Assembly (NCBI GenBank): GCA_965240465.1
Contig: OZ251219.1
Coordinates: 1,248,001-1,312,000, forward strand
Direction of reading: 5' to 3'
Source: a bacterium
Lineage (GTDB): Bacteria; SAR324; JACQKK01
Length of the DNA stretch: 64,000 nucleotides
Positions 1-64,000 of this stretch are shown one piece after another. Both the position numbers and the translations under genes were made by a program. The number at the start of each line of letters is the position of its first letter. The first letter of the stretch is position 1. The notes under the pieces were generated by a model. The model ran no database searches, was not told the DNA's origin, and saw only the letters and a list, made by a program, of their open reading frames with translations.

Positions 1-51
1 TCAGGTATCAGCCCCCCCCCCCAAGGTCAATCCTTAGCTGAAATACTGAAG

Positions 52-98
52 AGAAGCCAAGTAAAGAGCCAAGTAAAGAGCCATGTAAAGCCAGAGAA
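52..98. repeat. short degenerate 12-bp tandem repeat (agagccaagtaa) after lolA stop
   Basis: gccaagtaaa-gagccaagtaaa-gagccatgtaaa read directly. Confidence 0.7.
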
Positions 99-102
99 AT
101 CA

Positions 103-753
103 TTATTGACTAGGATTGATAGTGATGAGTTCCACCTCGGGTGGGGGAGTGAAGGTGAAGTAGTTTTTGGGAAATTTGGTACGCCTTTTCATTTTTGTGA
201 GTTTTAGAAGATGGATTTCGCCACCTGCAGTGGGTTGCAGGCGTAAAACCCGTAGCTGACCGTGCTTGAGTACTCCGACCTCAAATTCGCTAACGAGTGC
301 CAAGGGTTTCAGGGGTTTTAGACGCAGGAAGGCAAGTTTTCCTTTTCGGCGTTGCGAGATACAAGCAAATGTTTCTTGTAAGTTAGCAAGTTCCAGTAGG
401 AAGGTCAGCGGGGTTCCGCCAGTGAAGTTTGCTAGGGGTTGTGCCAGCACGCTTTTCAGCAAGGGATCGTAGAGCCAGACGGTTTTGTTGTCGGTGATTA
501 CCAGCTGGCGATGGGGCTTTTGATAATCCCAACGCATGCCTCGTTTTTGCTGATACCATATTCTGCCACTAGCGGTGCTGGAAGTGCTTTCATGATGCTG
601 TTGTTGTTCAAAGCGGGCTTCAAACCCTGACAGTTGTCGGTAATGACTTTCTATTCGGGCTAGCAAGTCTGTGTTACAGGGCAGAGCCCAAGCTGAGGTA
701 CTCAGGATTGTCATAATGGCGATTAATCCTATTCGGGTAATTAGCATTGGCAT
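103..753 (-). CDS. lolA: outer-membrane lipoprotein carrier protein LolA
   Basis: Signal peptide; F.Q..., SGRIWYQQKRGMRWDY, ITDNKTVWLYDP, C-terminal FTFTPP motifs typical of LolA. Confidence 0.85.
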   Translation of the reverse strand: MPMLITRIGLIAIMTILSTSAWALPCNTDLLARIESHYRQLSGFEARFEQQQHHESTSSTASGRIWYQQKRGMRWDYQKPHRQLVITDNKTVWLYDPLLKSVLAQPLANFTGGTPLTFLLELANLQETFACISQRRKGKLAFLRLKPLKPLALVSEFEVGVLKHGQLRVLRLQPTAGGEIHLLKLTKMKRRTKFPKNYFTFTPPPEVELITINPSQ

Positions 754-821
754 ATAGTGGTGCGGGTGGGATAGTTTAGGTATTATCGCTTAACCTATCA
801 CTTATTGCAGATCGCGGCTGG

Positions 822-1799
822 ATGGTTTTTAATTTTTTAGCCAGTTTTTTTTCGGGCGTGAGAGCGGTTTATCTGATAGCGGTCCTGTTATTGCTGACAC
901 CCTCACTAGCATTTGCTCAGCAGGGGATGATGGATGCTTGGTCTTGGGAGCGATTGGTAATTACTCTGTTGATATTTGCCTTTTTTTTAGGAGTGCTATC
1001 GGTTTTGGCTGGGGTAGGTGGGGCATTGATTTTTGTTCCTTTGATGACTTTATGGGCTCCTTTTTTACATGTGGATTTTATTCGGGCGACTGGTTTAATG
1101 ATGGCTCTGGTGGGAGCTTTGTTTGCGGGACCGCTCTTGATACGCCAGCGATTAGTCAATTTTCGGCTGGCAATTTTGATAGGAATGCTAAGTTCTACTG
1201 GGGCTATTTTCGGAGCGAAGATAGGATTGAGATTATCGGTACCTTTATTACAGCAGCTATTGGTGATGGTGATGCTAGTGGTAGTGTGTATGTATTTGGT
1301 ACGCATTTCTAGAGGAGCTAAGGCAGCTCGTCAGCTGAAAACAGAGGAGAATGTTAGTCGCTGGCAGGGTTGGCTGAGGTTGGAAGCTCAGCTTTATGAT
1401 TTTCCCAATCAACGCTGGTTAAGTTGGCAACCACGATTTTTATGGTTTTCGCTGGTGATGGTGGTGGGAGGAGGATTTCTTTCGGGCATGTTAGGGCTAG
1501 GAGGAGGATGGATTTATGTGCCGCTGTTAAATTTGGTGATGGGACTGCCATTGCGTTTTGCGGTAGCGACCAGTGGTTTTATCATTGCCATTGTGAACAC
1601 CGCGGCGGTGCCGATATACTTAAAACATGGGGCTTTGCAGCCATTGCTAAGTATCCCTTGTGTACTAGGAATGGTGTTGGGTGCGAGATTGGGGTCAAGA
1701 CTGTTGCGTGTTGCCGACCATTACTGGCTGCAGTGGCTAGTATTATTGGTATTGTGTTTTTCGGGATTTCGGATCTTATTGAGGAGCTTTGGCTGGTAA
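822..1799 (+). CDS. TSUP (TauE/SafE) family transporter
   Basis: Two GVGGALIFVP / GLGGGWIYVP repeats, AVATS motif, multiple TM helices. Confidence 0.85.
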   Translation: MVFNFLASFFSGVRAVYLIAVLLLLTPSLAFAQQGMMDAWSWERLVITLLIFAFFLGVLSVLAGVGGALIFVPLMTLWAPFLHVDFIRATGLMMALVGALFAGPLLIRQRLVNFRLAILIGMLSSTGAIFGAKIGLRLSVPLLQQLLVMVMLVVVCMYLVRISRGAKAARQLKTEENVSRWQGWLRLEAQLYDFPNQRWLSWQPRFLWFSLVMVVGGGFLSGMLGLGGGWIYVPLLNLVMGLPLRFAVATSGFIIAIVNTAAVPIYLKHGALQPLLSIPCVLGMVLGARLGSRLLRVADHYWLQWLVLLVLCFSGFRILLRSFGW

Positions 1800-1809
1800 G
1801 ATTACCTTG

Positions 1810-6476: not shown

Positions 6477-6618
6477 CAGCCCCTACTCTCCCCTTTTTCT
6501 TCCAGCCCCCTACTCTCCCCTTTTTCTTCCAGCCCCCTACTCTCCCCTTTTTCTTCCAGCCCCCTACTCTCCCCTTTTTCTTCCAGCCCCTACTCTCCCC
6601 CTTTTTCTTCCAGCCAGC
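6477..6618. repeat. 27-bp tandem repeat x5 abutting pnp stop
   Basis: cagccccctactctcccctttttcttc units. Confidence 0.95.
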
Positions 6619-8691
6619 CTATTCTTGATAGCGAGTAAGTTTCAGCTTGCCCCTTTTATCGGTGCCAGATACGCGTACGCTGACGATATCTCCTTCCCGC
6701 ATGAAGTCTTCCACTCGTTCTACTCTTCCTTCTGCCATTTGTGAGATGTGTAGTAGGCCATCGGTACCGGGCAGTAGTTCTATGAATGCTCCAAAATCGG
6801 TCACTTTTTTTACGGGTCCTTTGTAGACGGCCCCGATTTCCACTTCTGCGGTGATATTTTCCACCATTTTCAGTGCTTCTCTAGCTGCTTCGGGGTTTTC
6901 GGAGTGAATTTGAACTGTGCCATCATCTTGTACGTCTACTTTGGCACCTGTTTTTTCAATTATGCTCTTAATGGTTTTTCCGCTGGGGCCGATAAGTTCT
7001 CCGATGCGTCCTGGCTTGATGCGATGTACCAGCATGACGGGGGCATAGGGAGATAGTTCTTTTTTGGATGAAGTGATGGTTTTTTCCATTTCATCCAGAA
7101 TGTTAATACGACCGTCAAGGGCTTGTTTCAGTGCTTGAGCGAGAATATTTTTATCAATTCCGCTGACCTTGATATCCATTTGCAAGGCGGTGATCCCCTC
7201 ACGGGTGCCTGCGACTTTAAAATCCATGTCGCCCAGATGGTCTTCATCTCCCAAGATATCGGAGAGGATGACGGTGATTGTTCCTTCTTTAATCAAGCCC
7301 ATGGCGATACCTGCGGCGTGTTTAGAGATGGGTACTCCAGCATCCATCAGTGCCAGAGAGGCTCCACAGACAGAAGCCATAGAGGAAGAGCCATTGGATT
7401 CCAGAATTTCGGAAGTAATTCTGATAGTGTAGGGAAATTTTTCCTTACTGGGTAATAGTGGTTTGATGCCTTTTTGAGCCAGCATGCCATGCCCGATTTC
7501 TCTTCGTCCTGGGCCTCGCAAGAAGGAGGCTTCCCCGACACAAAAGGGAGGAAAATTGTAGTGAAAAAGAAAATCTTTGAAGCTGACACCATGGAGGTTG
7601 TCAATCAATTGTTGGTCTGAGCGGGCTCCCAGAGTGACGTTGACCAGGGCTTGTGTTTCTCCGCGGGTGAAAAGGGCAGAGCCATGGCAACGCGGCAGCA
7701 AGCCAATTTCGCTATTAATTTCTCTGATATCGGTCTGTGAGCGTCCATCCACCCGAGTGCCTTGGGAGGTGATTTGCTCTCTCATCAGGCGTTTTTTCAG
7801 GTTGCCAAAGATTTTTTCTACCTCTTTTTTGCGAGGTTCTTCATCGGATTGTGGATCATAAAATTTCTCCAGAGCCTGCTTTGACAGGGCATTCAAGGAG
7901 CCATAGCGAGCAAGTTTCTCTTTTTCGCTTAGGCTCTTAAGCAATGGTTCTGAAAACTGAGCTTCCATATTTTTTGCCAAAGCTTCATCAGTTTTGACCT
8001 CAGGTAAAGCACGCTTAGACAAACCAACTTTCTTTTGCAATTCTTCCTGAAGCTCAATCACTGGCAAAAGCTGTTGCTGAGCGAACAAAATAGATTCCAA
8101 AGCCAAATCCTCAGATATCTCATTAGCTTCCCCTTCCACCATCAATAGGCCTTCCTTGGAGCAAGTGACGAATATATCCAGCTCACTTTCAGCCAGCTGA
8201 TCAGGGGTAGGATTAACAATCAGCTTGCCGTCAATTCTGCCTACTCGCATGCCAGCAATGGGTCCTGCAAAAGGGATGTCAGATATGCTCAAGGCGACTG
8301 AAGTACCAATCATGGCTGCTACTCCAGCCTCATTTTTCTTATCGTAGCTAAGCACCGTGGCGATGATTTGGGTCTCATACTGAAATTCTGTGGGGAACAG
8401 CGGACGAATGGAGCGATCAATAAAGCGTGATATTAGGGTTTCATTATCCGAAAGGCGTCCTTCTCGGCGTAAGAACCCGCCAGGGATGCGACCAGCAGCA
8501 TAATGTTTCTCCACATAATGCACCGAAAGCGGAAAGAAGGGTAAGTCTTTAGACTCTTTTTCCGCTACCGCAGTGACAAGTACTACCGTTTCGCCATAAC
8601 GCACTAAGGCGGAACCAGATGCCTGACGAGCAATTCGTCCAACTTCAATTTTTAGGGGATTACCACCCAATTCAGTGGAAACAATTTCCAT
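6619..8691 (-). CDS. pnp: polyribonucleotide nucleotidyltransferase
   Basis: RNase PH domains (IPGGFLRREG, ESNGSSSMAS, DHLGDMDFKVAG), KH and S1 domains. Confidence 0.98.
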   Translation of the reverse strand: MEIVSTELGGNPLKIEVGRIARQASGSALVRYGETVVLVTAVAEKESKDLPFFPLSVHYVEKHYAAGRIPGGFLRREGRLSDNETLISRFIDRSIRPLFPTEFQYETQIIATVLSYDKKNEAGVAAMIGTSVALSISDIPFAGPIAGMRVGRIDGKLIVNPTPDQLAESELDIFVTCSKEGLLMVEGEANEISEDLALESILFAQQQLLPVIELQEELQKKVGLSKRALPEVKTDEALAKNMEAQFSEPLLKSLSEKEKLARYGSLNALSKQALEKFYDPQSDEEPRKKEVEKIFGNLKKRLMREQITSQGTRVDGRSQTDIREINSEIGLLPRCHGSALFTRGETQALVNVTLGARSDQQLIDNLHGVSFKDFLFHYNFPPFCVGEASFLRGPGRREIGHGMLAQKGIKPLLPSKEKFPYTIRITSEILESNGSSSMASVCGASLALMDAGVPISKHAAGIAMGLIKEGTITVILSDILGDEDHLGDMDFKVAGTREGITALQMDIKVSGIDKNILAQALKQALDGRINILDEMEKTITSSKKELSPYAPVMLVHRIKPGRIGELIGPSGKTIKSIIEKTGAKVDVQDDGTVQIHSENPEAAREALKMVENITAEVEIGAVYKGPVKKVTDFGAFIELLPGTDGLLHISQMAEGRVERVEDFMREGDIVSVRVSGTDKRGKLKLTRYQE

Positions 8692-10040: not shown

Positions 10041-10126
10041 TTTACCTCCTTGTAAAAATAAAAACATCCGTGTCCGCCCTCTCAAATAGAGTGGGTTTTC
10101 ATTATTTGCCAGTTTCCTTTGCCGCG

Positions 10127-10156
10127 AGGATATAACACACTAAAAGCCCATGTCAA
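10127..10156 (-). promoter_or_regulatory. sigma70-like promoter for the capsid-like gene
   Basis: TTGACA (10156-10151)-18 nt-TATCCT on minus strand. Confidence 0.55.
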
Positions 10157-10190
10157 CACTTTCTTAAAAAAAATACCCCCCCCTCCTTCC

Positions 10191-11192
10191 TTACTCCACC
10201 AGCACGCAGCGAGGTTGGATTTGCAATCCAGCTGATGTTTGAATGGCAGTTCCGATAGCGAGGAGGCGTCCTTGTTGATTGAGAGCTTTGAGGGGTTTGT
10301 CAATGGTGAGGTTATCAGGGGTTGTAAAGGGTGTCAGCCTGCCTTGTAGTAGGTGCGGGAGGTTTTCGGGGTTAATTTCCACTGGGGCGTGGTTGGTGAG
10401 GAAGGGGACGGGGTTGAGGATATACTGGCAGGGTGGGGATTTTAGCAGTTCGCTGAGGTTGACGGCTTGTTTGATATTCCATGACGGGCTATCGGAGCCT
10501 ATTGCGGTTCGTTTAAGGGAGGTGAGATGAGCACCTACTTTTAGAGAGGTGCCGATGTCGTTAGCGAGCGAGCGGATGTAAGTTCCAGCACTACAGAGGA
10601 CATCCAGATGCAGGTAGGGGAGTTTGATTTTTTGTACTTCTAGGAGATGGAAGCATACTTTTCGGGTGCGGTGATGTGCTATTTCTCCTTTTCTGGCGAG
10701 TTTATAAGCGGGGATGCCATTTTTTTTCACGGCAGAGAAGTCAGGGGTTTGCTGATTGTGTTCGCCGTGCCAAGCGAGGACTGCGTCGTTTATTTGCTGA
10801 GGAGTGAGGTGATCAGGCGATTTACAGGAAAGCATGGTGCCTTCAGCGTCTAGGGTATCGGTTTGTTCGCCTAGTTTTATGATGGCTTGGTATCGTTTTG
10901 GGAGTTTTTCAAACAGGTGGATGAGTCGGGTGGCATTGCCGATAAACATAACTAGGACTCCCGTAGCTAGGGGGTCGAGCGTGCCTAAGTAGCCGACCCT
11001 GAAACGAGTTTTTGTTTGGCGGATTTTTTTATCGTGGTAGAAGTGCCTTTTCACTTTTTGAAGTACCTGATTAGAAGATAATCCTGGGGGTTTATCTAGC
11101 ACCAGTATGCCCGATGGGACATTTGTGGTGGTGTCAGCAGAATTTGCGACATCAGTTTCAGTTGCAGGTGTGGTGAGCAGAATTTGCGACAT
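10191..11192 (-). CDS. truB: tRNA pseudouridine(55) synthase
   Basis: LDKPPGLSS, GYLGTLDPLATGVL, CSAGTYIRSL. Confidence 0.95.
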   Translation of the reverse strand: MSQILLTTPATETDVANSADTTTNVPSGILVLDKPPGLSSNQVLQKVKRHFYHDKKIRQTKTRFRVGYLGTLDPLATGVLVMFIGNATRLIHLFEKLPKRYQAIIKLGEQTDTLDAEGTMLSCKSPDHLTPQQINDAVLAWHGEHNQQTPDFSAVKKNGIPAYKLARKGEIAHHRTRKVCFHLLEVQKIKLPYLHLDVLCSAGTYIRSLANDIGTSLKVGAHLTSLKRTAIGSDSPSWNIKQAVNLSELLKSPPCQYILNPVPFLTNHAPVEINPENLPHLLQGRLTPFTTPDNLTIDKPLKALNQQGRLLAIGTAIQTSAGLQIQPRCVLVE

Positions 11193-11215
11193 CAGTTTCA
11201 GTTGCAGGTGTGGTG
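11136..11215. repeat. 40-bp direct duplication spanning the truB start
   Basis: agcagaatttgcgacatcagtttcagttgcaggtgtggtg x2. Confidence 0.9.
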
Positions 11216-11237
11216 GTATGCACTGCAGAGGTAGGGG

Positions 11238-11594
11238 TTAATTTTCTTTGGAGATGGGGGAGGATTTTTTGAGTAGGCGATCAATGTTATCGGCATGTGA
11301 GAAGCCAAGGTCGGGGATAAATTGCAGTCGAGGAGTATTGCGGGTATGTAGCGAGCGTCCCAATAAACGACTGAAGAACCCGGCGGCTTGATTAAGGGCT
11401 TTGGCGACATTTTGCAAGTTTTGGGGAGGGTAGCAGCTAAAATGGATTTTAGCGGATGAAACATCTGGGGAAGTTTTAACTCGGCTGATGGTAACGGAGT
11501 TAAAGCGAGGGTCATGGGCTTCCTCTTGCAGCAGCCGTCCCAGTTTATGATGTATCAGCTGAGAAATATGGGCTTGTTTGCGTGATGGGGTCAT
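11238..11594 (-). CDS. rbfA: ribosome-binding factor A
   Basis: DPRF..VTISRV..SPD.S.AK, R.TPRLQF..D; between infB and truB; the ORF-track N-terminal extension is translated repeat. Confidence 0.9.
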   Translation of the reverse strand: MTPSRKQAHISQLIHHKLGRLLQEEAHDPRFNSVTISRVKTSPDVSSAKIHFSCYPPQNLQNVAKALNQAAGFFSRLLGRSLHTRNTPRLQFIPDLGFSHADNIDRLLKKSSPISKEN

Positions 11595-11619
11595 TATCAG
11601 TCTAGAAAGCGACATTGAA

Positions 11620-11807
11620 AAAGGAGCACTGAGAAAGGAGCACTGAGAAAGGAGCACTGAGAAAGGAGCACTGAGAAAGGAGCACTGAGAAAGGAGCACT
11701 GAGAAAGGAGCACTGAGAAAGGAGCACTGAGAAAGGAGCACTGAGAAAGGAGCACTGAGAAAGGAGCACTGAGAAAGGAGCACTGAGAAAGGAACACTGA
11801 GAAAGGA
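11620..11807. repeat. 14-bp tandem repeat x13 (aaaggagcactgag)
   Basis: Near-perfect array between infB and rbfA. Confidence 0.97.
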
Positions 11808-11836
11808 ATATTTATTGGCTTATGTGGTAGCGAGAA

Positions 11837-14365: not shown

Positions 14366-14440
14366 GGACTTTACAACAAGGGATAGGGGGGGCTAACAAG
14401 AGGAAGAATTATCGCAGGGGAGGGGGGAGGGGGGGGGGGG

Positions 14441-16192
14441 TTAGTCTGTGGCGGGGACTTCTTCAGTTTTTTTTGCGGTGCCTTCTTCAGTGCCTTCTTT
14501 AGAGCTTTGTGCAGGGATTTCTTCAGTGCCTTCTTTAGAGCTTTGTGCAGGGATTTCTTCAGTGCCTTCTTTAGAGCTTTGTGCAGGGATTTCTTCAGTG
14601 CCTTCTTCAGTGCCTTCTTCAGTGCTTTGTGCGGGGATTTCTTCAGTGCCTTCTTTAGAGCTTTGAGCAGGGATTTCTTCAGTGCCTTCTTTAGAGCTTT
14701 GAGCAGGGATTTCTTCAGTGCCTTCTTTAGAGCTTTGTGCAGGGATTTCTTCAGTGCCTTCTTTAGAGCTTTGTGCAGGGATTTCTTCAGTGCCTTCTTC
14801 AGTGCCTTCTTCAGTGCTTTTTGCAGGGATTTCTTCAGTGCCTTCTTCAGTGCCTTCTTTAGAGCTCTGTGCGGTGCCTTCTTTAGTGCCTTCTTTAGTG
14901 CCTTCTTTAGAGCTTTGTGCAGGGATTTCTTCAGTGCCTTCTTTAGAGCTTTGTGCGGGGATTTCTTCAGTGCCTTCTTTAGAGCTTTTTGCAGGGATTT
15001 CTTCAGTGCCTTTTTTAGAGCTTTGTGCAGTCTGCTCTGGATCCTGGGATTTATTTAGGTTATTTTTATTATCTTTTTGATTAAGTTCTGATTGTTTATC
15101 CAGTTCGGCTTGTGAAGCGAGCAGGCGTTCTCTGATTTGTGCTTCTATGCTGAGGGTTTGGTCTACGGTGGAGGAGATGTTTATTTTTTTATTGAGCAGT
15201 TTGGAAGCCAAGCGAACATTTTGTCCTTGCCGACCAATGGCGAGCGATAGTTGTTCTGGTTCTACCTGAACATCTATTTCTTCACTTTCCTCGTTGAATT
15301 TCACTCGGCTCAGTTCAGCAGGTGCGAGGGCGTTGGCTAGGTAGATAAGGGGATCTTCGCTGTATTGGACGATGTCTATTTTTTCGCCTCGCAGTTCATT
15401 TACGATTGATTGTACTCGGGAGCCTCTCATACCCACGCAGGCTCCTACGGGATCGACATCGGAGTCATTGGAACGTACGGCTACTTTGGCACGTTTGCCG
15501 GGTTCTCGTGCGGCTAGGACTATTTCCACCACGTTGTCATAGATTTCGGGTACTTCAGTTTCAAACAGCTTCATCAGCAGACTGGGATGGGATCGCGAAA
15601 CCACTAATTGAGCTGGTTCTTTGGGATCGTTGCGTACTTCCAGCAAAATCACGCGGATGTGGTCTCCGCTGGAGTATCTTTCGGTAGGAATTTGTTCTCT
15701 GGGGTATAGAATGGCTTCTGTCTGGTTGAAATTAATATAAGTGCGACCGCGTTCACTACGGCTAATTACCCCATTGATTATATCCCCTATCCGATTCTTA
15801 AATTTTTCGTAGATGAATTCGCGTTCGGCTTCACGCACCTTTTGAAATACCATGTGACGAGCAGTTTGGGCGATTACTTTGCGTAGATCTTCGTTATCTA
15901 TTTCGTATTCCACCACATCTCCCAGTTGAGCGGAGTCGTCTAGGGATTTGGCTTCTTGCAGAGAAAGATTATTATCGGGGTCATCGGATTCTTCTACTAC
16001 GGTTTTGTAGTGAAAGACCTCCAAGGAGCCAGTATTTTGGTTAATGCGAGTTTCTAGATCGTTATACTGGGAAAACTTGCGTTTGGCAGCCAGGGTGATG
16101 GCTTCTTGAACGACCTGTATCAGACGATCTTTGTTAATTCCCTTAGCGTAGGAAATATCACTAAGGGCTTTAAGCAGTTCTTCTTGTTGCAT
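14441..16192 (-). CDS. nusA: transcription factor NusA with long acidic repeat tail
   Basis: S1/KH motifs (AREPGKRAKVAV, DPVGACVGMRGSRV, AIGRQGQNVRLA); C-terminal EGTEEIPAQSSK repeats. Confidence 0.96.
   Translation of the reverse strand: MQQEELLKALSDISYAKGINKDRLIQVVQEAITLAAKRKFSQYNDLETRINQNTGSLEVFHYKTVVEESDDPDNNLSLQEAKSLDDSAQLGDVVEYEIDNEDLRKVIAQTARHMVFQKVREAEREFIYEKFKNRIGDIINGVISRSERGRTYINFNQTEAILYPREQIPTERYSSGDHIRVILLEVRNDPKEPAQLVVSRSHPSLLMKLFETEVPEIYDNVVEIVLAAREPGKRAKVAVRSNDSDVDPVGACVGMRGSRVQSIVNELRGEKIDIVQYSEDPLIYLANALAPAELSRVKFNEESEEIDVQVEPEQLSLAIGRQGQNVRLASKLLNKKINISSTVDQTLSIEAQIRERLLASQAELDKQSELNQKDNKNNLNKSQDPEQTAQSSKKGTEEIPAKSSKEGTEEIPAQSSKEGTEEIPAQSSKEGTKEGTKEGTAQSSKEGTEEGTEEIPAKSTEEGTEEGTEEIPAQSSKEGTEEIPAQSSKEGTEEIPAQSSKEGTEEIPAQSSKEGTEEIPAQSTEEGTEEGTEEIPAQSSKEGTEEIPAQSSKEGTEEIPAQSSKEGTEEGTAKKTEEVPATD
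14450..15030. repeat. in-frame 36/12-bp repeat array in nusA 3' end
   Basis: cagtgccttctttagagctttgtgcagggatttctt units plus 12-bp subunits. Confidence 0.95.
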
Positions 16193-16267
16193 ATGGCGGT
16201 GTGTTCCTTAAAAGGAAAAAAACTTGTTGATGATTACATAAATAATTAATAAAAGGCACAAAATCAA

Positions 16268-16334
16268 GGACTAATGACACGTCCTAATGATATGTCCTAT
16301 ATTACACGGACTAATGACACGGACTAATGACACG
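16268..16334. repeat. degenerate 13-bp repeat (ggactaatgacac) at rimP stop
   Basis: Read directly. Confidence 0.8.
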
Positions 16335-52200: not shown

Positions 52201-52884
52201 ATCCAAATACTACCCGAAGCATTAAGCAATCACTCCCGAAAACAGCTGGAGCAAAAACTATTAAAAAACGAGCATAACTTGCAAAAATTCAGTGATGTGA
52301 ACATGACCGCTCCCAAAGAACATCAAAAACTGACCGAACGCACCGCTCATATGAAAGACCAACAAGCCGATCTACAGAGTGCCATCAAGAATTTACACGA
52401 TTCCATTCTGCGTCTCAATCAGGAATCCCAAAGGCGATTCCTAAAAACTTTTAAGGCTGTAAATACCAAATTTGAAGAACTATTTGTTAACATCTTCGGA
52501 GGAGGAGAAGCTCGCCTGATGATGACCCAAAAAGATGATCCCCTCAATACAGGAGTGGATATCTATGCTCATCCGCCCGGTAAAAAGCTACAAAACATCA
52601 ATCTACTCTCTGGAGGAGAAAAAGCTCTCACCTCCATTGCCCTGATATTCGCCTTCTTTCTGCACAAACCCAGCCCCTTCTGTCTGCTGGATGAAGTGGA
52701 TGCTCCCCTAGATGATGTCAACATAGCTCGCTTTAATCGCTTATTAAAATCCATGACAAAGCACACTCAGTTCATCATCATAACCCACAACAAGCGTACC
52801 ATGGAAGTCGGAGACACCCTCTACGGAGTCACCATGGAAAAAGCAGGAGTTTCGCGGATCGTTTCGGTGCGACTGCCACAATAG
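49261..52884 (+). CDS. smc: chromosome segregation protein SMC
   Basis: GPNGCGKSN, coiled coils with hinge, LLSGGEK, LLDEVDAPLD. Confidence 0.96.
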   Translation: MKLKQLRISGFKSFCDETEFRFDGGLVSMIVGPNGCGKSNVADALGWALGEQSPRSMRGASMSDVIFNGSSTRKAVNLAEVSVLFDNRERKALEKYNDFSEIAITRRLYRSGESEYLINNVGCRLMDVRELLMDTGAAGRAYSIVEQGRVESFVSASAEDRRQFMEEAAGVMRYKTHRLTAERKLEQTQQNLRRVDDVLSELYRQEAVLSQQVKNVQQVRNLQQETEQVQLALGCKSYAEKLLVVQSLEEQLDKLKQAAEQIEEGLEASLKTAEIDGSTQAESLQNARAEQEKTRQILQKDQQQLEMLTESQPQSMGWKSHLEADLQKIDTSFSQMEKALKEKEKLQKELVRELNKEEKSLQLKQNLHDKHQAAFTQDDAKQQQQQERLFAFHDQLNGINHRSQQLSEQLNRWKGSEEALMNQFRGLQQEKSSQQGAQQQQKVLASLRDSLQAVRASHGATMAEEKKSLEIENQARERHTELEKRQLECTLRFQALKEMQDNLEGFTGPVKSLFAWLQANPQSAQKLKVCGVMSDLFTASKEVLRWAGTYLASFSGWVVIESSANLLSLANLLEKEQIGGISFVALDRLPQLPADEGVSLASRLRYAPKFKPLFQALFGNVMVHEGEKWAEVFASDWHKRWKTDSEWLSEGIAVHMGLKGEVVLGLKKESGVEVLQRRLKLEELEKELGSLANSCKKVNKELEAAGENLKSWEQKRIAHQAELEEKNQALMSCEQHWHVLQTEQQRFTRKEEQLQSELNSNRSGQKILASERDALISQIKDVENKRATTEKEVNQSSTKLGQLRQSSEEATVALSRQQALCIRLKSNLDASGKEYQQLRQSLEGLSSQRSEQQIRQRNWQEEEIKKKERKKQLKEQITQMKSTYTHQKKQRLILERQFKQKEAERRKIAVKVHQSREKQGKYHKNKHALELKLAEEKVRLEQSAVKVTPLLAQVEFSKETTQKISKLDQDAKLRYLFSAEIQILPEALSNHSRKQLEQKLLKNEHNLQKFSDVNMTAPKEHQKLTERTAHMKDQQADLQSAIKNLHDSILRLNQESQRRFLKTFKAVNTKFEELFVNIFGGGEARLMMTQKDDPLNTGVDIYAHPPGKKLQNINLLSGGEKALTSIALIFAFFLHKPSPFCLLDEVDAPLDDVNIARFNRLLKSMTKHTQFIIITHNKRTMEVGDTLYGVTMEKAGVSRIVSVRLPQ

Positions 52885-52907
52885 TGAATAGAATTGTTCA
52901 GGGGCGG

Positions 52908-53645
52908 TTAATTCACCACCGCATTTTCATCTGATTGTTGTTTGGATAGATAGCGATTTATAATTTCTAGTACAATGGAGGCTTTTTCTTTTACCAAGTG
53001 GCTTTCGTCATTTTTTTCCATGTCTTTGATTTTTTCCAAGTGAGAGAAATCGGAAGCTAGGGAAATCACTTCCAAGGTGTGCCATCGTACTAGTACATCT
53101 TTGTCTTCAAGCAGGTATCCTACTAAGGGAGCTACTCGGTCGTCACCGATATTTTTCAAAGCACGTATCACTGGGAGCTTGACGAAATTCCTAATTGTCT
53201 CCTGATTACTATCCTCCTTGGAAGATTTTGTTTTAGCAGAGGTTTTTTTCATTTTACTGAGGAGTTTTCCAGTTGCTCCCAGTCTTAAACCCAGTAATTT
53301 TAGTAAGGGTTCGGTAGCCTGTTTATTTTTGGCCTTACCGAGGGCATCCACAATGGTTTCTAACAACAAAGGATGCTCGCGTTTGTTTTTTTCTAGCATT
53401 TCCATCAGCCTATTCACTGCCGCGGGCTGACTATTGCGTCCCAGAGCGGATATGGCATACATCACCTGAGCGGGAGTGCCTTCCTTAGAAATCTGTAGCA
53501 GTGATTCCAAGGGCACCCGACCAGATCGCTCAAAATCAATGAGACGCTTTATGGCAATACTACGCTCTTCTGGTTCTTTGGATTTAAGATTATGGACCAG
53601 TTTATCCAGTTCTTCGGCAGCTTTTTTTGTTAATTTGTTCGCCAT
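52908..53645 (-). CDS. HEAT-repeat protein
   Basis: Repeated ALG..A...L..LL and LLEDKD.LVRW motifs; GGAGG SD. Confidence 0.75.
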   Translation of the reverse strand: MANKLTKKAAEELDKLVHNLKSKEPEERSIAIKRLIDFERSGRVPLESLLQISKEGTPAQVMYAISALGRNSQPAAVNRLMEMLEKNKREHPLLLETIVDALGKAKNKQATEPLLKLLGLRLGATGKLLSKMKKTSAKTKSSKEDSNQETIRNFVKLPVIRALKNIGDDRVAPLVGYLLEDKDVLVRWHTLEVISLASDFSHLEKIKDMEKNDESHLVKEKASIVLEIINRYLSKQQSDENAVVN

Positions 53646-56697: not shown

Positions 56698-57627
56698 TTA
56701 ATCAGACTTGGAATGATCGGATGACCTTATCCAATCTAGTTCTAGATTATCCTGCCATACTTTGCAGCGTTGTTCCCAGTCTTTTTTGAAGGGGCTGGGG
56801 GGGCTACTGGGGGGGCTTGGGGGGCTGGATGATGGTTCGTCAGGAGCAGGAGTTATTGCCTGAGGAGCAGTTTGTGGCTCAGTTGATAGGGGGTGGGGTA
56901 GGGGGCGAGATGGGATGGCAGAGTTTGATGGTGGTATTTCAGGGCGAGCGGATTGGCGATATCGCAAGGGAGGACAAGGATGCTTCTGAAAGGGATTAAA
57001 TCTTTTAGGCACGATTAAGAACGATGAAAAGGATGTTACTGCTTCAAGCACGATATTCATGGTATGCAGTAGCTTCTTAGGGACAAATGCTAGCCCGCGG
57101 GGTTTTAGTTGGAGAATAAGCCAGCTGAAGGATATGATGGCAAAGATTAAGCCAAGTTTGCTCCCTAGTGTTTGTTGGGTCCAGTTTAGGGAGCTCCAGC
57201 CTACCCATCCAGAGCCTTTCAAGCTGGAGTTAGGGGGAACATCAAGCATTCCTAGTAGGAAAGCGAAGGAGAAAAGTGTGAGTAGGGCTGTCATCCAGTA
57301 GCGTAAGGCGGAGATTTGTCGGTTGGGGAGGCAAATACGGCTAAAGATTAGGAAAGGTAGCAACAAGGAAGCTCCCCCGAATGCTTCTACTAAGGCACCT
57401 GCCAGCAGTGCTCCTAAGATTCCAAACCTGTTTTGGATGCCACCCAGGGAGGTGTATAGGTTAAACGGAGATGAATCAAGCGGATGAAACGATAGTAGGC
57501 AAGCCATCAGCAAGGAGGAGACGGTAATGGCTACAACTGGACGAAGAACAGGGCGTACTGCCAGTCTATTGAGGAGGGTAAGAGACCTATTGAATAAATT
57601 CATAGCTGTACCCATGCATCCTTTCAT
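56698..57627 (-). CDS. FtsK N-terminal 4TM-domain protein without motor domain
   Basis: SFHPLD...NRFGILGA..A....FG..SLLLP resembles FtsK_4TM; Pro-rich tail, no P-loop. Confidence 0.65.
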   Translation of the reverse strand: MKGCMGTAMNLFNRSLTLLNRLAVRPVLRPVVAITVSSLLMACLLSFHPLDSSPFNLYTSLGGIQNRFGILGALLAGALVEAFGGASLLLPFLIFSRICLPNRQISALRYWMTALLTLFSFAFLLGMLDVPPNSSLKGSGWVGWSSLNWTQQTLGSKLGLIFAIISFSWLILQLKPRGLAFVPKKLLHTMNIVLEAVTSFSSFLIVPKRFNPFQKHPCPPLRYRQSARPEIPPSNSAIPSRPLPHPLSTEPQTAPQAITPAPDEPSSSPPSPPSSPPSPFKKDWEQRCKVWQDNLELDWIRSSDHSKSD

Positions 57628-61596: not shown

Positions 61597-61609
61597 AGAA
61601 ATTTGCAAA

Positions 61610-63034
61610 CTAGGAATAATGGGTGCGTAATCCTGAAAGTACGTGCTTCCATGGAGCAGACTGTAAAACCTCGCCCCAAGCGACAAATTTTTCGGCAAAG
61701 CGGAATAATTTTTTGTTGAAGGCTGATTTGTTATTGGCGTCCCAAGCGATTAAAGCCTTTTCCAAGGGCTGTGCTAGCGTTTTAGGAGCTTCTATGCTCG
61801 GATGACATGCCAAAGTACGCCAAAGTAACTGGATCTGCAAATAGGCCTCATCGTGGATGCCACTAGCTGTATGATAAGCATTGGTATAGCAAAGCATGGC
61901 TTGCTTATAAAATTCATTGGGGGATATTAAATAAGGATGCAGACTGGATACCTTACGGATCAAAGCCTGACCGTAAGATTTAGGAACACGCAGAAAAGGC
62001 TCACGAGCAATCACGAAGCGATTTTGGTACATCATATGAACGAAATGGATTGCTTCTTGGTTAACTGCTTCCAGAGTTTGTGGATCGGGCTTAAGTCTGA
62101 TGGATGATTGTAGGTTGTTCATGGCAATACGAAATCCAGAACGCATTCGGCAATTCTTGGAGTAGCGAATAAATTCTTCTTCCACCAGAAAACGAGATTG
62201 CTTCTGACGACGAAAAGGCCATCCAAATGGAGGTAGATGCTCATGCAACAAAGCTGAAGGATAACTTATCATCAGGCTTAGTTTTTGAGCACTATCTAAA
62301 AAATGTTTCAGAGTATTTTGTCGCCATGCCACTATCCCCTGATTTAACCATGGCTCCCACAACACATATTGCTCCCAAATTAACTGGCAAAAATTGAAAC
62401 CATTCCGCAATTGCTTAAAATCACTGGAAACGCTCAAAAGAACTCCCGAGGCACTCACGGCTGCTTTATGTCTGAATGTCATCGGGGAGGTCGGCTTAGA
62501 TCGCCATGGCAAAGGAGGTGGCTCATCTATCGCGGTGTGAATGTGCTTCATCTCTTGGGGAAAAAGTGCTGCCGCAGCACTCAGCCAACTAGATAAAAAT
62601 CTAGAAAAATATGCCATATTCATCATCAGCGAATCGCAGGCATGACTATCGGGCAACGCCTTCTTTGCGTGAAACTCAGCCAAACTTAGACCGAGTAAGG
62701 AAATCCTCTCCTTCAGGCAACTTGGAAATGATGACAAACCTTCCTCAGATTGGTTATATTCCAAACAGTCTGCTCTCTGCCAACTGGTATAAAAGCAAGA
62801 AGCCTCAGCTGGAAATCCCCCTGCTCCTAAGCGAATAGGTAGTATCTGCTTGCTCTTCAAAACCTGAACCCAACTACGTAAATTATCCTCGGCTACATGA
62901 AGCAAATTATGGCAATCACGCTTTTCTATCTCACAGGCTATGCTCGCTAAATTCGCTTCAATGCTCTCAACGGCAGATATATCACGCTCGTGAAGAACGG
63001 TGGTTCGCATCAACATAGAAAACATCCAATCCAA
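61610..63034 (-). CDS. hypothetical protein
   Basis: 474-aa ORF, no recognised motif. Confidence 0.55.
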   Translation of the reverse strand: MDWMFSMLMRTTVLHERDISAVESIEANLASIACEIEKRDCHNLLHVAEDNLRSWVQVLKSKQILPIRLGAGGFPAEASCFYTSWQRADCLEYNQSEEGLSSFPSCLKERISLLGLSLAEFHAKKALPDSHACDSLMMNMAYFSRFLSSWLSAAAALFPQEMKHIHTAIDEPPPLPWRSKPTSPMTFRHKAAVSASGVLLSVSSDFKQLRNGFNFCQLIWEQYVLWEPWLNQGIVAWRQNTLKHFLDSAQKLSLMISYPSALLHEHLPPFGWPFRRQKQSRFLVEEEFIRYSKNCRMRSGFRIAMNNLQSSIRLKPDPQTLEAVNQEAIHFVHMMYQNRFVIAREPFLRVPKSYGQALIRKVSSLHPYLISPNEFYKQAMLCYTNAYHTASGIHDEAYLQIQLLWRTLACHPSIEAPKTLAQPLEKALIAWDANNKSAFNKKLFRFAEKFVAWGEVLQSAPWKHVLSGLRTHYS

Positions 63035-63129
63035 GGGGGCTATTGGTAACCTTACACGATAACATACAATGATACTTAATTTCAGACATCAGGCAACGAC
63101 AATAACCCAAAAATGATCTCCTTGCAGAC

Positions 63130-63777
63130 ATGAAAAAAAAAATCAAAACTACCAACTGGCCCCGCTGGATGCAAAATCAGCTGCTAAATAGGGGAATTAC
63201 TCATCAGAGGGTACTTAATGCCATCGCTGAAACCCCACGAAAATTATTTGTCGCTCCTGATGACTCCGCTTTGGCTGAAGAGGATATTCCTATAAAAATA
63301 GGCGAAAATCAAACCATCTCACAGCCTTATGTGGTCGCTCTAACGCTGCAGGAAACCAACCCGCAATCTTACGAAAAAATACTGGAAATCGGCGCTGGCT
63401 CAGGATGGCAAGCTGCTTTGCTTGGCAAACTCTCTCAAAAAGTACACACCCTAGAAATACGACCTAAACTCTTCTCGCAGGCAAAAATAAATCTGCTGAA
63501 ACTCCAATGCCACAATGTCCACCTCCACCTTGCCGATGGCAAACTAGGATGGAAAAACGCTGCCAAATACGATGTCATTATCTCGGCCGCTTGCGTCCCT
63601 AAAATCCCGACCGCCTGGACCGAACAACTCTGTCCAAACGGAAGACTGCTCGCACCAGTCGGAAACACACACTCTCAACAACTTTGGCTCTTGAAAAAAA
63701 TGCCCGATGGAAGCATCAAACACAAAATACTCACCGAAGTTAAATTCGTACCGCTGGTCTCGCCCACTGAACTATAA
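63130..63777 (+). CDS. pcm: protein-L-isoaspartate O-methyltransferase
   Basis: QTISQPYVVA, LEIGAGSGW, V.FVPL. Confidence 0.93.
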   Translation: MKKKIKTTNWPRWMQNQLLNRGITHQRVLNAIAETPRKLFVAPDDSALAEEDIPIKIGENQTISQPYVVALTLQETNPQSYEKILEIGAGSGWQAALLGKLSQKVHTLEIRPKLFSQAKINLLKLQCHNVHLHLADGKLGWKNAAKYDVIISAACVPKIPTAWTEQLCPNGRLLAPVGNTHSQQLWLLKKMPDGSIKHKILTEVKFVPLVSPTEL

Positions 63778-63880
63778 AAAAGCGGGGGCGGGGGGCTGGC
63801 GGGCTGGCGGGCATCTTGACAAAGGATAGGGCTAGGCATACTTTGTTTGTTAGGTGACTGTATTACCTCAGGAGAACAGC

Positions 63881-64000
63881 ATGGCAGGAGAAAACAAAAC
63901 AGAAGGCAGTATTAACACAGCAAATACTTTGGGAAAAACACTTCTTGATGTTTTGTATACAGCGGTAGATCCCAAACGCTTTGCTGTGTTGGTTTTTACC
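63881..64000 (+). CDS. N-terminus of a gene truncated by the window end
   Basis: TTGACA at 63816, AGGAG SD, open frame MAGENKTEGS... Confidence 0.55.
   Translation, partial: MAGENKTEGSINTANTLGKTLLDVLYTAVDPKRFAVLVFT

Follow-up and report, generated by a model that had tools for sequence, protein, structure and literature searches.

The plus strand of the 64,000-nt stretch of bacterial DNA analysed here (the window; G000:C1:1248001-1312000) changes again and again from A/C-rich to G/T-rich, and the question is what produces these flips. A preliminary description had listed 15 of them, regarded them as independent of gene direction and traced them to many sites of bidirectional DNA synthesis or strand-asymmetric repair, possibly the same process that makes the local repeats.

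The alternation in strand composition is genuine. Keto skew is over-dispersed locally (SD of left/right differences 0.127 versus a binomial 0.063 at 500 nt), and with windows of 200-500 nt the A/C to G/T up-step exceeds the random-position median at all 15 named positions and the random 90th percentile at 10-11 of them; at 1000 nt these numbers are 14 and 6 of 15. The up-step is kept at third codon positions in 11 of 12 evaluable flips and at 4-fold degenerate sites in 11 of 11, so that the signal neither disappears at silent sites nor can be put down to gene orientation together with amino-acid composition. Our data support a strand-asymmetric signal that is not explained by amino-acid composition, codon family, neighbouring bases or gene orientation. 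The up-steps of the described sawtooth are thus confirmed, but its one-signed character is not, as abrupt down-steps are similarly frequent in the window (26 up versus 31 down at a threshold of 0.25, 17 versus 13 at 0.30 and 7 versus 5 at 0.35).

Table 1. Flips, co-oriented gene runs and repeat features along the window, with step sizes (delta) before and after masking
Feature	Positions	Strand	Setting	Skew and remarks
Whole window	1..64000		housekeeping chromosome, G>C replichore (leading = +)	Pfam annotation of 53 ORFs
Flip ~100	42..103		convergent: + gene 3' end (41), lolA(-) 3' end (103); 12-nt x3 array 55-90	delta +0.47 (w=300); 0.30 masked
Flip ~6620	6480..6619		C-rich 27-nt x5 array (6480-6615) adjoining pnp(-) 3' end (6619)	delta 0.24, masked 0.16; 4-fold keto skew 0.00 to 0.42
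Flip ~10190	10086..10191		border of capsid-like ORF(-) 5' end and truB(-) 3' end	delta 0.39, masked 0.36; 4-fold keto skew 0.00 to 0.46; truB sense strand strongly C/A-rich (k1 -0.235, k2 -0.169, k4 -0.378)
Flip ~11810	11604..11837		14-nt x14.6 array in rbfA(-) 5' part, beside infB(-) 3' end (11837)	product of the array: delta 0.23, -0.02 with repeats and runs masked
Run CAAX protease, rimP, nusA, infB, rbfA, truB	10191..17941	-	co-oriented; sense 4-fold sites G-rich to C-rich	4-fold GC skew, first to second half: CAAX 0.29 to 0.46, RimP 0.27 to -0.29, NusA -0.41 to -0.71, IF2 -0.52 to -0.20, RbfA -0.23 to -0.77, TruB -0.54 to -0.60
G12-containing run	14416-14440		poly-C on sense strand, upstream of infB	strongly G/T-rich on +, keto +0.76
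In-frame 36-nt x15 array	within 14416..15031	-	nusA 3' part	strongly G/T-rich on +, keto +0.33
Flip ~18100	17942..18142		CAAX gene(-) 5' end, DnaJ-HTH_25 gene(-) 3' end; array 17975-18041	delta 0.21, same after masking; third-position GC skew -0.44 to 0.57
Run lptF/G, parA/mrp-like, DnaJ-HTH_25	18142..21432	-	co-oriented; sense strand G-rich to very C-rich	4-fold GC skew, first to second half: LptFG 0.32 to 0.18, ParA -0.33 to -0.48, DnaJ-HTH -0.81 to -0.70
Flip ~23900	23845..24192	+	G-rich in-frame arrays (12-nt, 15-nt units), 3' part of repetitive 832-aa gene	delta 0.23, 0.00 with repeats and runs masked
Flip ~26070	26000..26200	+	true intragenic step, valS at 0.63 of CDS	delta 0.27, same after masking; 4-fold keto skew 0.01 to 0.39
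Flip ~30570	30422..30689		non-coding, right of tRNA-Leu(cag)(-); terminal GTTGGGGG x2.8 array (30668-30689)	
Flip ~33480	33460..33486		convergent: clpP(+) 3' end, pfkB(-) 3' end	weakest of the 15 (delta 0.14)
Flip ~34490	34490..34540	-	G-run array at pfkB(-) 5' end, abutting hemH(-) 3' end (34540)	sense C-runs are proline codons; keto +0.73; delta 0.21, masked 0.11
Flip ~36815	36815..36833		convergent: PDZ gene(+) 3' end, gatA-like amidase(-) 3' end	delta 0.27, same after masking; 4-fold keto skew -0.13 to 0.26
Flip ~41540	41519..41677		convergent: E2 acyltransferase(+), apaG(-); G13, GTGTGGGTGC-type array and G10 between	keto +0.68; delta 0.42, masked 0.21
Flip ~52885	52884..52908		convergent: smc(+) 3' end, HEAT-repeat gene(-) 3' end	delta 0.27, same after masking; smc switches G-rich to C-rich at ~0.75 of length
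Flip ~56780	56698..56828	-	FtsK-4TM ORF(-) 3' end; GGGGCTGGG-type array, sense C-runs	keto +0.68; delta 0.34, masked 0.25
Flip ~63780	63777..63854		pcm(+) 3' end, GGGCTGGC array, next + gene start (63854)	delta 0.37, masked 0.29; pcm k4 -0.204

The supposed independence from genes has to be rejected, as 12 of the 15 flips have a CDS end no more than 150 nt away, a distance that 34% of random positions reach (p = 0.00035). Divergent neighbours had been thought to share their plus-strand skew; genome-wide, r is 0.038 for 331 pairs in opposite orientation and 0.17 for 702 pairs in the same orientation. Two genes, valS and infB, were said to contain flips: the step at 26070 indeed lies inside valS, but the one at 11810 is located 27 nt outside infB, and the flip at 23900 belongs to an unnamed 832-aa gene and not to valS.

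A detailed analysis of silent sites revealed a polarity along genes. In 946 genes of at least 200 aa the GC skew at 4-fold sites falls by decile from -0.052 to -0.334, with C rising from 0.232 to 0.305 and G dropping from 0.209 to 0.152 while A and T stay level. Among the 448 genes with 400 aa or more, 318 have a negative slope (significantly so in 198), and 72 of the 79 20-kb chunks of the genome are negative (median -0.244); within the window, 29 of the 43 genes that could be evaluated have a lower 4-fold GC skew in the 3' than in the 5' half. The gradient is similar on both strands, from 0.061 to -0.231 on the leading and from -0.201 to -0.416 on the lagging strand. Some genes run against the usual polarity, with 43 of the 448 significantly positive and the 832-aa gene of the window going from -0.16 in its first half to 0.27 in its second.

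At the borders the trend is reset. With units delimited by gaps between ORFs from a crude length-first ORF picker and not by mapped transcripts, 481 of the 662 gaps in the genome have a positive plus-strand step in third-position GC skew; the step amounts to +0.17 at co-oriented, +0.32 at convergent and +0.33 at divergent junctions; gaps of up to 40 nt reset by +0.06 and larger ones by +0.16 to +0.23. The first 40 codons of each ORF are G-richer, tightly packed pairs included. Furthermore, the skew is restricted to coding DNA and ends at the stop codon: it is -0.325 in the last 100 codons and -0.07, +0.03 and +0.08 in the following 40-nt bins, and the sister species (G001) behaves in the same way (-0.384, then -0.07, +0.03 and -0.01). 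As a 5' to 3' polarity is invariant under reverse complementation, every unit border reads as a C/A to G/T up-step on the plus strand regardless of the direction of the flanking genes, which is why the pattern seemed independent of gene orientation.

We consider it very probable that the sawtooth is a gene-anchored, non-replicative pattern. It would be the plus-strand projection of the sense-strand composition of genes or transcription units, lying on top of a single-origin replication skew. In both species, coding DNA is made up of blocks in which G>C or C>G is strong at silent sites, the average unit starting with G about equal to C and ending with C far above G, with A and T unaffected. The mean polarity accounts for little of the local silent-site variance, most of which is gene- or block-specific: a term for orientation by position in gene lifts the silent-site R2 just from 0.083 to 0.120 across the genome and from 0.011 to 0.038 within the window, where the sense-strand composition of individual genes and blocks dominates the local skew.

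With regard to replication, the chromosome has one ordinary origin. Cumulative GC and keto skew form a V with the minimum at 604.6-607.8 kb, at dnaA (605,584-606,018) and outside the window, and the maximum at 1562 kb. Recurrent bidirectional synthesis in intergenic DNA, from extra origins or by R-loop-primed or repair synthesis, would leave a leading-strand-like G/T excess on the outgoing strand of each site, in agreement with a reverse-complement symmetric pattern and up-steps at all three junction types. The replication skew is also nearly pure G/C (delta GC skew 0.227, delta TA skew 0.037), as is the gene skew, and the amino-acid shifts seen here resemble those reported for leading versus lagging strands. 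We nevertheless regard this reading, and with it the many synthesis sites proposed before, as extremely improbable: beside the single V, the steps sit at gene borders, tightly packed borders barely reset, neighbours in opposite orientation are uncorrelated on the plus strand (r = 0.04), and the non-coding DNA beside the most skewed gene ends is unskewed, which a synthesis footprint should not spare. DnaA-box-like words number 17 in the window versus 15.1 +/- 3.9 expected, and the 64 kb contain no perfect DnaA box. Even less probable is an inversion history in which genes retain the skew of their former replication strand. The absent gene-strand bias (609 leading versus 600 lagging genes), the unequal replichores (about 957 versus 642 kb) and the bumpy global skew curve would fit such a history, but the replication term at 4-fold sites of about +/-0.11 GC skew is too small for blocks that reach +/-0.33, switches occur within genes, neighbours are nearly uncorrelated and the systematic 5' to 3' direction argues against it.

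A repeat-making process, i.e., slippage or tandem duplication of skewed motifs, could likewise generate skew domains. Arrays have a stronger skew than randomly placed stretches of equal length (mean |keto| 0.264 versus 0.148), and the described coincidence with flips holds up, as 8 of the 15 lie within 50 nt of an array, the corresponding share being 11.7% for random positions and 26.5% for all 98 CDS ends (binomial p = 0.0245 against the CDS ends). The flips at 11810 and 23900 are lost on masking, and runs of at least 6 nt follow gene polarity: the first fifth of the CDS holds 121 of 321 sense G-runs and the last fifth 79 of 245 sense C-runs. C-runs left and G-runs right of the flips were also found (6 C and 1 G within 300 nt to the left, 18 G and 0 C to the right), a count that is partly circular because G/C runs themselves produce skew. 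However, just 5.8% of the window consists of arrays, masking leaves 13 of the 15 steps in place, and the correlation of silent and non-silent skew is not short-range but rises with window size, from 0.60 at 300 nt to 0.70 at 2 kb. In the sister species the polarity is present and array bases amount to 0.84%, about 7 times fewer than the roughly 6% of G000, whereas the family member G008 has 3.2% and no polarity, which speaks against a common process for skew and repeats and makes the repeats a highly improbable source of the domains. Tandem repeats sharpen some flips and are separable from the skew; arrays and G/C runs share the polarity of the genes.

That there is no separate force, and that the skew is a by-product of the encoded proteins, the strand and codon or dinucleotide context, is already largely refuted and in our view highly improbable. 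Across the genome, 76-78% of the all-site plus-strand keto-skew variance can indeed be predicted from protein sequence and genome-wide codon usage, and within the window 74-76% (gene-level R2 0.805), and CpG depletion (odds 0.68) indicates that context effects exist. But silent-site G/C skew varies between genes with an SD of 0.32 versus 0.11 from sampling, and per-gene keto skew at 4-fold sites co-varies with that at positions 1 and 2 (r = 0.62). With codon family, the next two bases and replichore class controlled (context model R2 0.32), 4-fold GC skew still has a residual SD of 0.273 versus 0.113 from sampling, the residual correlation with positions 1 and 2 is again 0.62, and the model yields no gradient (-0.18 to -0.21) where one from -0.065 to -0.317 is observed. 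The retention of the flip steps at 4-fold sites and the much weaker equivalent measures in family members and controls (silent/non-silent r 0.11-0.42, SD 0.13-0.21) point in the same direction.

The polarity is shared by this small genome and its sister species, in which 4-fold GC skew runs from +0.037 to -0.320 along genes, and is limited to one genus. It is flat in three family members and one order member (G008, G009, G004 and G013), absent from 60 genome control loci (median Q5-Q1 +0.04), and none of 30 metagenome control loci lies below -0.20.

Within the gene-anchored pattern, we infer as cause a directional G-versus-C pressure coupled to gene expression. We slightly favour, tentatively, a strand-specific mutation or repair bias tied to the transcription of translated DNA; the strand-asymmetric repair suggested before may apply in a form linked to gene expression. 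Against a transcription-proportional cause, the genes of the S10 cluster, EF-Tu and EF-G are not extreme in skew and the 23S rRNA gene lacks a G to C shift (compared with one outgroup), and against a mutational cause stands that the skew halts at the stop codon and that the full set of Mfd, MutS, UDG, Fpg, RNase HI and RNase HII is present in the genome. Selection on the C/G content of translated mRNA is possible but rather doubtful. G-poor, C-rich distal parts would serve Rho well as substrates when translation fails or comes to its end and G-rich, C-poor proximal parts would resist premature Rho loading, or codon choice would strengthen with the cost of an aborted protein. This is in line with a skew that in both species is limited to coding DNA and does not pass the stop codon, with the G-richer first 40 codons even in tight pairs and with the loss of G-ending to A-ending codons in Lys, Glu and Gln (G-ending share 0.463 to 0.353 overall for 2-fold R-ending codons). 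Moreover, C is reported to be preferred over G on the sense strand at 4-fold sites in 71.5% of 1,550 prokaryotes (PMC4844684). In 40 kb of the window, terminator-like hairpins do not exceed their numbers in shuffled sequence (18 versus 22.4 and 17 versus 20.5), but this contrast fails in the sister species (34 versus 21.4). The pure G/C exchange with flat A and T has been counted for selection; as the replication skew shares this signature, it is no evidence for selection here. The skew is no stronger in genes for ribosomal proteins and elongation factors, G-ending codons drop in boxes with and without a CNN tRNA whereas Leu TTG does not drop, and the pattern occurs in two reduced genomes of the family, where weak silent-site selection would be expected; together with the amino-acid changes, the lack of tRNA logic and this occurrence argue against selection.

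The directional G/C shift reaches codon positions 1 and 2, and therefore protein composition shifts too. GC skew at position 1 falls from 0.247 to 0.134 in G000 and from 0.148 to 0.018 in the sister species; in family members and controls it stays level or rises. The residues that increase with G-rich silent sites are Val, Arg, Trp, Leu and Met, and those that decrease are Thr, Asn, Pro, Asp and Ile.

The 15 abrupt switches of the + strand from A/C-rich to G/T-rich sequence, which the preliminary description had interpreted as many sites of bidirectional synthesis or strand-asymmetric repair, are a real property of this DNA. Measured with flanks of 200, 300 and 500 nt, each of the 15 steps is larger than the median for random positions, and 10-11 of them are also above the 90th percentile of such positions; for flanks of 1000 nt the corresponding numbers are 14 and 6. 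The left/right differences in keto skew (G+T versus A+C) amount to about twice the binomial noise (0.127 versus 0.063 at 500 nt), and the step is retained at silent sites, in 11 of 12 evaluable cases at third codon positions and in 11 of 11 at 4-fold degenerate sites. The idea of a one-sided sawtooth was confirmed for the up-steps but not for the one-sidedness, as abrupt down-steps are equally common (26 up and 31 down, 17 and 13, 7 and 5 at three thresholds). The switches are also not independent of genes, as had been assumed: 12 of the 15 have a CDS end no more than 150 nt away, compared to 34% expected (p=0.00035).

Sorted by location, five switches sit at convergent gene ends and six where co-oriented genes meet; of the remainder, one falls into a gene's 3' part, another is next to tRNA genes, and two are intragenic. 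Switches had been placed inside both infB and valS. This holds for valS, where position 26070 is the sole true intragenic step, but not for infB: the step at 11810 is located just outside this gene, is made by a 14-nt array and is gone on masking, and the same applies to the array-made step at 23900, which falls into an unnamed 832-aa gene and not into valS. Genome-wide, the + strand skew of adjacent genes is correlated with r=0.17 in co-oriented pairs (n=702) and uncorrelated in oppositely oriented ones (r=0.038, n=331). Therefore, the two divergent gene pairs that had been put forward as sharing a common + strand skew are not representative.

The studied genome (G000) consists of one contig of 1,599,138 bp with 45% G+C, in which the window spans C1:1248001-1312000, and its cumulative GC and keto skews describe a single V with the minimum at 604.6-607.8 kb and the maximum at 1,562 kb. 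The sole DnaA-domain match of the genome coincides with this minimum, outside the window, which is thus located inside the replichore with the G-rich + strand and far from the origin. No chromosome-wide cumulative-skew extremum of the origin type is present within the window: its cumulative keto skew starts at about 50, climbs over most of the window to reach about 2660 near 59.5 kb and drops to 2330 by the end, with small local reversals en route. Using the word TTATCCACA, which we take to be the DnaA-box consensus, with at most one mismatch, we found 17 matches in the window compared to 15.08 +/- 3.89 in shuffled sequences; there is no perfect match in the window and none of the 17 near-matches is located within about 125 nt of a named switch. 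Pfam assigned names to 43 of the 53 submitted ORFs of the window, which make up an ordinary housekeeping set. A strand preference of genes is absent in G000 (609 leading versus 600 lagging among the 1,209 ORFs with 100 aa or more), the two replichores differ in length (about 957 versus 642 kb) and the global skew curve reverses locally in several places, such as 100-150, 325-375 and 850-900 kb. The combination of these three features hints at past rearrangements.

The genes themselves are polar. In 946 genes of at least 200 aa, the GC skew at 4-fold sites, which is read on the sense strand unless stated otherwise, declines decile by decile from -0.052 at the gene start to -0.334 at the gene end. 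Along the genes the fraction of C increases from 0.232 to 0.305 and that of G decreases from 0.209 to 0.152, with A, T and the TA skew remaining flat. In 2-fold boxes, the share of G-ending versus A-ending codons drops from 0.463 to 0.353, that of C versus T rises slightly (0.364 to 0.398), and the share of the Leu codon TTG is unchanged. The gradient is alike in leading-strand and lagging-strand genes. Among 448 genes with 400 aa or more, 318 have a negative slope, and the significant slopes comprise 198 negative and 43 positive ones; in 190 genes a single switch performs better than a line fit, with clear cases going from about +0.33 to -0.33 and the switch point located anywhere along the gene. 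Amino-acid usage changes along the genes as well, with Q5/Q1 ratios of 1.35 for Gln, 1.24 for Tyr, 1.18 for Asn, 0.77 for Asp, 0.75 for Cys and 0.86 for Val.

As a 5'->3' polarity is invariant under reverse complementation, gene borders are expected to appear as + strand up-steps at all junction types. Genome-wide, the + strand step in third-position GC skew is positive at 481 of 662 gaps of 30-600 nt, and the mean step is +0.17 at co-oriented (n=422), +0.32 at convergent (n=99) and +0.33 at divergent borders (n=141). The reset across a gap is +0.06 if the gap is at most 40 nt long, aside from the G-richer first 40 codons, and +0.16 to +0.23 if it is larger. In a logistic model, both the distance from the own gene start (z about -7 to -14) and that from the start of a packed run (z about -9) count. 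The skew did not change with the rank of a gene within a co-oriented run (-0.19 to -0.23), as these runs do not correspond to operons, and a gap-based analysis was used instead, with transcription units inferred from the gaps between ORFs. Mean polarity accounts for little of the local silent-site variance, adding about 4 R2 points genome-wide and about 3 in the window. The per-gene GC3 skew on the sense strand has a variance of 0.101, with a sampling share of 0.007, and most of this variance is gene- or block-specific; part of it may reflect the position within transcription units. Two runs in the window that change from G-rich to C-rich, lptF/G to parA-like to DnaJ-HTH and CAAX to rimP to nusA and on to truB, are compatible with this idea.

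The skew is a property of individual genes and not of regions. At 4-fold sites, the keto skew per gene has an SD of 0.198 compared to 0.090 from sampling, and it correlates with codon positions 1 and 2 of the same gene (r=0.62). Replichore and orientation together explain just 7.5% of the + strand gene skew at all sites and 11.5% at 4-fold sites, and the replication term at 4-fold sites is about +/-0.11 GC skew, compared to which the gene-anchored local pattern is larger. Among genes, 4-fold sites vary chiefly along a C-versus-G axis (59% of variance, GC-skew SD 0.32). Protein sequence plus genome-wide codon usage predict the local skew at all sites well (R2 0.76-0.78 in the genome, 0.74-0.76 in the window), but silent sites carry a skew signal of their own beyond this prediction. 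A context model built on codon family, the two bases that follow and replichore class accounts for 32% of the gene-level 4-fold GC skew and leaves a residual SD of 0.273 versus 0.113 from sampling, with the residual still correlated with positions 1 and 2 (r=0.62). Moreover, this model predicts a flat profile along genes, so that the observed 4-fold gradient is outside its prediction.

Among the relatives, the trait is confined to one genus. In the sister species G001 (PNPase 76% identical) the 4-fold skew falls from +0.037 to -0.320 over 400 kb, and a high gene-level dispersion and the coupling to positions 1 and 2 are found as well. Polarity was not seen in three members of the family, namely in 200 kb of G008, 200 kb of G009 and 280 kb of G004, nor in 100 kb of the order member G013. 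It was also not present in a diverse set of genomes with 60 evaluable loci (median Q5-Q1 +0.04, 23 negative), and 30 evaluable metagenome loci had a median of +0.06 with none below -0.20; control loci represent one stretch per genome and the relatives are non-independent samples. Of the 20-kb chunks of G000, 72 of 79 are negative (median -0.244). Both skewed genomes, with 1.6 and 1.7 Mb, are small for their family, in which the others have 2.3-5.2 Mb. A search for close relatives that could reveal strain-level polymorphism found none, the best identities being 53% (metagenome scan) and 49% (genome scan). Beyond the window, genes were called by a length-first ORF picker using the longest start, which agrees with the Pfam-supported set inside the window; a picker scored by codon usage was dropped, as it missed Pfam-supported membrane and unknown genes.

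In both skewed genomes the skew stops at the stop codon. At 105 gene ends of G000 it is -0.325 in the last 100 codons and -0.07, +0.03 and +0.08 in the next 40-nt non-coding bins; at 26 convergent ends the values are -0.359 in coding DNA versus -0.12 to +0.05 downstream, and at 41 ends of G001 -0.384 is followed by -0.07, +0.03, -0.01 and +0.04. The 80 nt upstream of genes are mildly G-rich (+0.07 to +0.09). If transcripts end very near stop codons, the limit at the stop codon would not separate transcription from translation. Codon positions 1 and 2 shift in the same direction in G000 and G001 only, and the gradient at position 1 is likewise limited to these two genomes. G-rich silent sites are accompanied by Val, Arg, Trp, Leu and Met with their G/T-rich codons and C-rich silent sites by Thr, Asn, Pro, Asp and Ile with A/C-rich codons. 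In the 23S rRNA gene, which is transcribed but not translated, G->C changes are not in excess: sites where G000 and G001 both differ from G008 comprise 5 G->C and 9 C->G changes, and the GC skew is 0.152 and 0.142 versus 0.167 in G008, figures that depend on a single outgroup and a strongly constrained gene.

Tandem arrays contribute to the picture. The 40 merged arrays cover 5.8% of the window and their skew is above that of random stretches (0.264 versus 0.148). The described proximity of repeats and switches was borne out, with 8 of 15 switches at most 50 nt away from an array compared to 26.5% of CDS ends (p=0.0245); 13 of the 15 steps persist once arrays and G/C runs are masked. Genome-wide, 121 of 321 sense-strand G-runs of at least 6 nt are located in the first fifth of genes and 79 of 245 such C-runs in the last fifth. 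The arrangement of C-runs to the left and G-runs to the right of switches thus belongs to gene polarity. Arrays make up about 6% of bases in G000, but just 0.84% in the likewise polar G001 and 3.2% in G008, where polarity is absent, so that the repeat load is not common to the skewed genomes.

The array load of G000 is about 7-fold that of its sister. Some arrays are in frame, as in nusA (36 nt x15), rbfA and the 832-aa repetitive protein, and large non-coding arrays are found between genes too. Runs of at least 10 nt number 46 for G/C versus 4 for A/T genome-wide; 74% of the G/C runs are intergenic and 72% have G on the leading strand. With a threshold of 8 nt, 138 G/C runs were seen, whereas a first-order estimate predicts about 6 G runs per strand. 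It is possible that the long poly-G/C tracts are slippage-prone switches or assembly-sensitive sites.

The signature resembles the replication asymmetry that switches at oriC, where G and weakly T are set against C and A, and the replication-linked skew of G000 itself is nearly pure G/C. Amino-acid shifts of the same kind distinguish leading-strand from lagging-strand proteomes. However, replication asymmetry in G000 has a single switch at dnaA, and the local pattern is absent from flanking non-coding DNA. Transcription-associated asymmetry in bacteria, reportedly described by Francino and Ochman and by Beletskii and Bhagwat as a G+T excess on the non-template strand, likewise concerns the transcribed sense strand and is visible at silent sites. 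Such an asymmetry has one sign and is expected to rise with expression. In G000, in contrast, the skew changes its sign within the unit without involvement of A and T, and the presumably highly expressed S10-cluster, EF-Tu and EF-G genes are not extreme (about -0.24 to +0.12).

According to Chen et al. (2016), prokaryotes prefer the cheaper C and U on the sense strand at fourfold sites (PMC4844684). The G000 average fits this preference, with a 4-fold GC skew of -0.08 in leading and -0.31 in lagging genes and a TA skew of +0.14 and +0.10; averaging both classes, which removes the replication term, gives about -0.19 and +0.12, that is C>G and T>A. Their model has no position dependence, the terms "gradient" and "along the gene" are absent, and neither G-rich 5' blocks nor a genus-specific pattern is predicted (PMC4844684). 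The nearest description of a gene-end polarity is the GC skew of unicellular fungi, which runs in the opposite direction, with a C-biased 5' end and a G-biased 3' end extending into UTRs (PMC3315797). Like the fungal skew as outlined there, the pattern in G000 is anchored to the sense strand, has opposite signs at the two gene ends and intermediate values between, is present at fourfold-degenerate sites and goes along with end-specific amino-acid usage. G000 genes are, however, G-richer 5' and C-rich 3'. Furthermore, the fungal skew is reported to enter promoters and 3' UTRs (PMC3315797), but that of G000 does not, with +0.07 to +0.09 upstream and -0.07, then at least +0.03, downstream, where the UTR is assumed. 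The fungal case also concerns eukaryotic Pol II genes, whereas here a bacterium with operons is affected and the trait is limited to one genus in its family. For the fungal skew, too, one mutational and one adaptive hypothesis are offered by its authors (PMC3315797). A bacterial report of such polarity was not found in the full-text literature searched, which omits most subscription journals.

We infer that a directional G-versus-C pressure coupled to gene expression acts in this genus. We lean slightly toward a mutation or repair bias that is strand-specific and linked to the transcription of translated DNA, because all codon positions and the proteins shift, the signature matches that of replication skew and the genomes are reduced. 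Selection on the C/G content of mRNA fits other facts, namely the confinement of the skew to coding sequence, the rise in G at the beginning of each ORF and the pure exchange of G and C. Neither the mutational bias nor mRNA selection covers all observed limits. As a tentative proposal, a reduced-genome lineage could have gained an expression-coupled, strand-specific mutation or repair bias that exchanges G for C along units, acts in translated DNA only, exceeds the replication skew in strength and is strong enough to reshape proteins.

Two other causes were considered and rejected. Loss of a repair gene is not supported, as six genes with repair or R-loop functions, Mfd (TRCF), MutS, UDG, Fpg, RNase HI and RNase HII, are found in all five genomes inspected (G000, G001, G008, G009 and G004). 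HhH-GPD genes occur once in G000, twice in G001 and in 2-3 copies in family members; loss therefore cannot explain a trait common to both skewed genomes. Judging from ORF sizes, MutY may be absent from G000, for which completeness is estimated at 83.6%. Loss of intrinsic terminators is inconsistent across genomes: counting one 20-kb stretch each time, hairpin-plus-T-run terminators are not above shuffles in the window (18 versus 22.4 at 1-20000, 17 versus 20.5 at 30001-50000), and they are in excess in the sister G001 (34 versus 21.4), clearly so in G008 (57 versus 32.6), with 39 versus 28.7 in G009. Sigma-70-like promoters are not above shuffles either in the same two stretches of the window (27 versus 28.5 and 37 versus 32.0).

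Some further loci are included in the table. The interval between truB and rpsO would be an unexpected spot for a capsid-like or encapsulin-like gene, as which the 320-aa ORF might be read. No FtsK motor domain follows the 309-aa 4TM ORF in the window. The series of RNase H fragments suggests a tandemly duplicated segment.

Features in the window and elsewhere in the genomes (C1, contig coordinates of the genome named; other positions are those of the window)
Feature	Position	Strand	Remarks
Window genes, first group			lolA, TauE/TSUP exporter, class II (D/K/N-type, lysS/asnS-like) aminoacyl-tRNA synthetase, pnp-rpsO (Pfam)
Window genes, run			rimP-nusA-infB-rbfA-truB (Pfam)
Window genes, others			valS, tig-clpP, hemH, gatA-like amidase, smc, ispF, rho, pcm (Pfam)
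Window methylases			three N6/N4 DNA methylase genes (Pfam)
Methylase-Mrr pair	27269-30364		two tandem paralogues fusing N6/N4 DNA methylase to Mrr-type nuclease domain (479, 476 aa); 85-nt tRNA-Pro(cgg) between them, one of two such tRNA genes in G000
Third methylase gene	57856-58668
320-aa ORF	9123-10085	-	between truB and rpsO; weak Phage_capsid_2 match, E 4.7e-6, just over cut-off
309-aa ORF	56698-57627	-	match only to FtsK 4TM N-terminal region; proline-rich, C-run-encoded tail
Tandem array	14458-15031
Tandem array	21906-24192
Tandem array	11604-11807
Tandem array	5514-5695
Tandem array	1819-2188
Tandem array	17012-17206
Poly-G/C tract	14416-14440
Poly-G/C tract	34503-34516
Poly-G/C tract	41545-41557
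Poly-G/C tract	41645-41654
DnaA-domain match	G000:C1:605,584-606,018
HhH-GPD gene	G000:C1:626706-627104		215-aa ORF, Nth-sized
Additional HhH-GPD gene	G001:C1:1615854-1616246		401-aa ORF, MutY-sized
RNase H series	G000:C1:255696-271494		intact RNase HI gene, then four C-terminal RNase H fragments with in-frame stops, about 3.1-3.5 kb apart
Split ribosomal-protein cluster	G000:C1:75760-97947		about 9 kb of + strand genes between two blocks, presumably S12-S7-EF-G-EF-Tu-S10-L3... and S8-L6-...-SecY-Adk (names from N-terminal sequences and one Pfam match)

Local GC and keto skews are in wide use to call origins, inversions and foreign DNA. In G000 the gene-anchored signal is about three times the replication term and origin-like steps occur at most gene borders, so that skew-based calls at the kilobase scale would go wrong in such genomes. 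The G-versus-C pressure tracks the starts and ends of coding sequences, alters proteins and arose within one genus, and two skewed sister genomes together with unskewed relatives make the question whether gene-linked skews are mutational or selected a testable one. If the tentatively proposed bias is true, the unexplained skews at the gene ends of yeasts would have a bacterial counterpart of opposite polarity, and transcription-translation coupling would be connected with DNA damage or repair in a way that has not been described.
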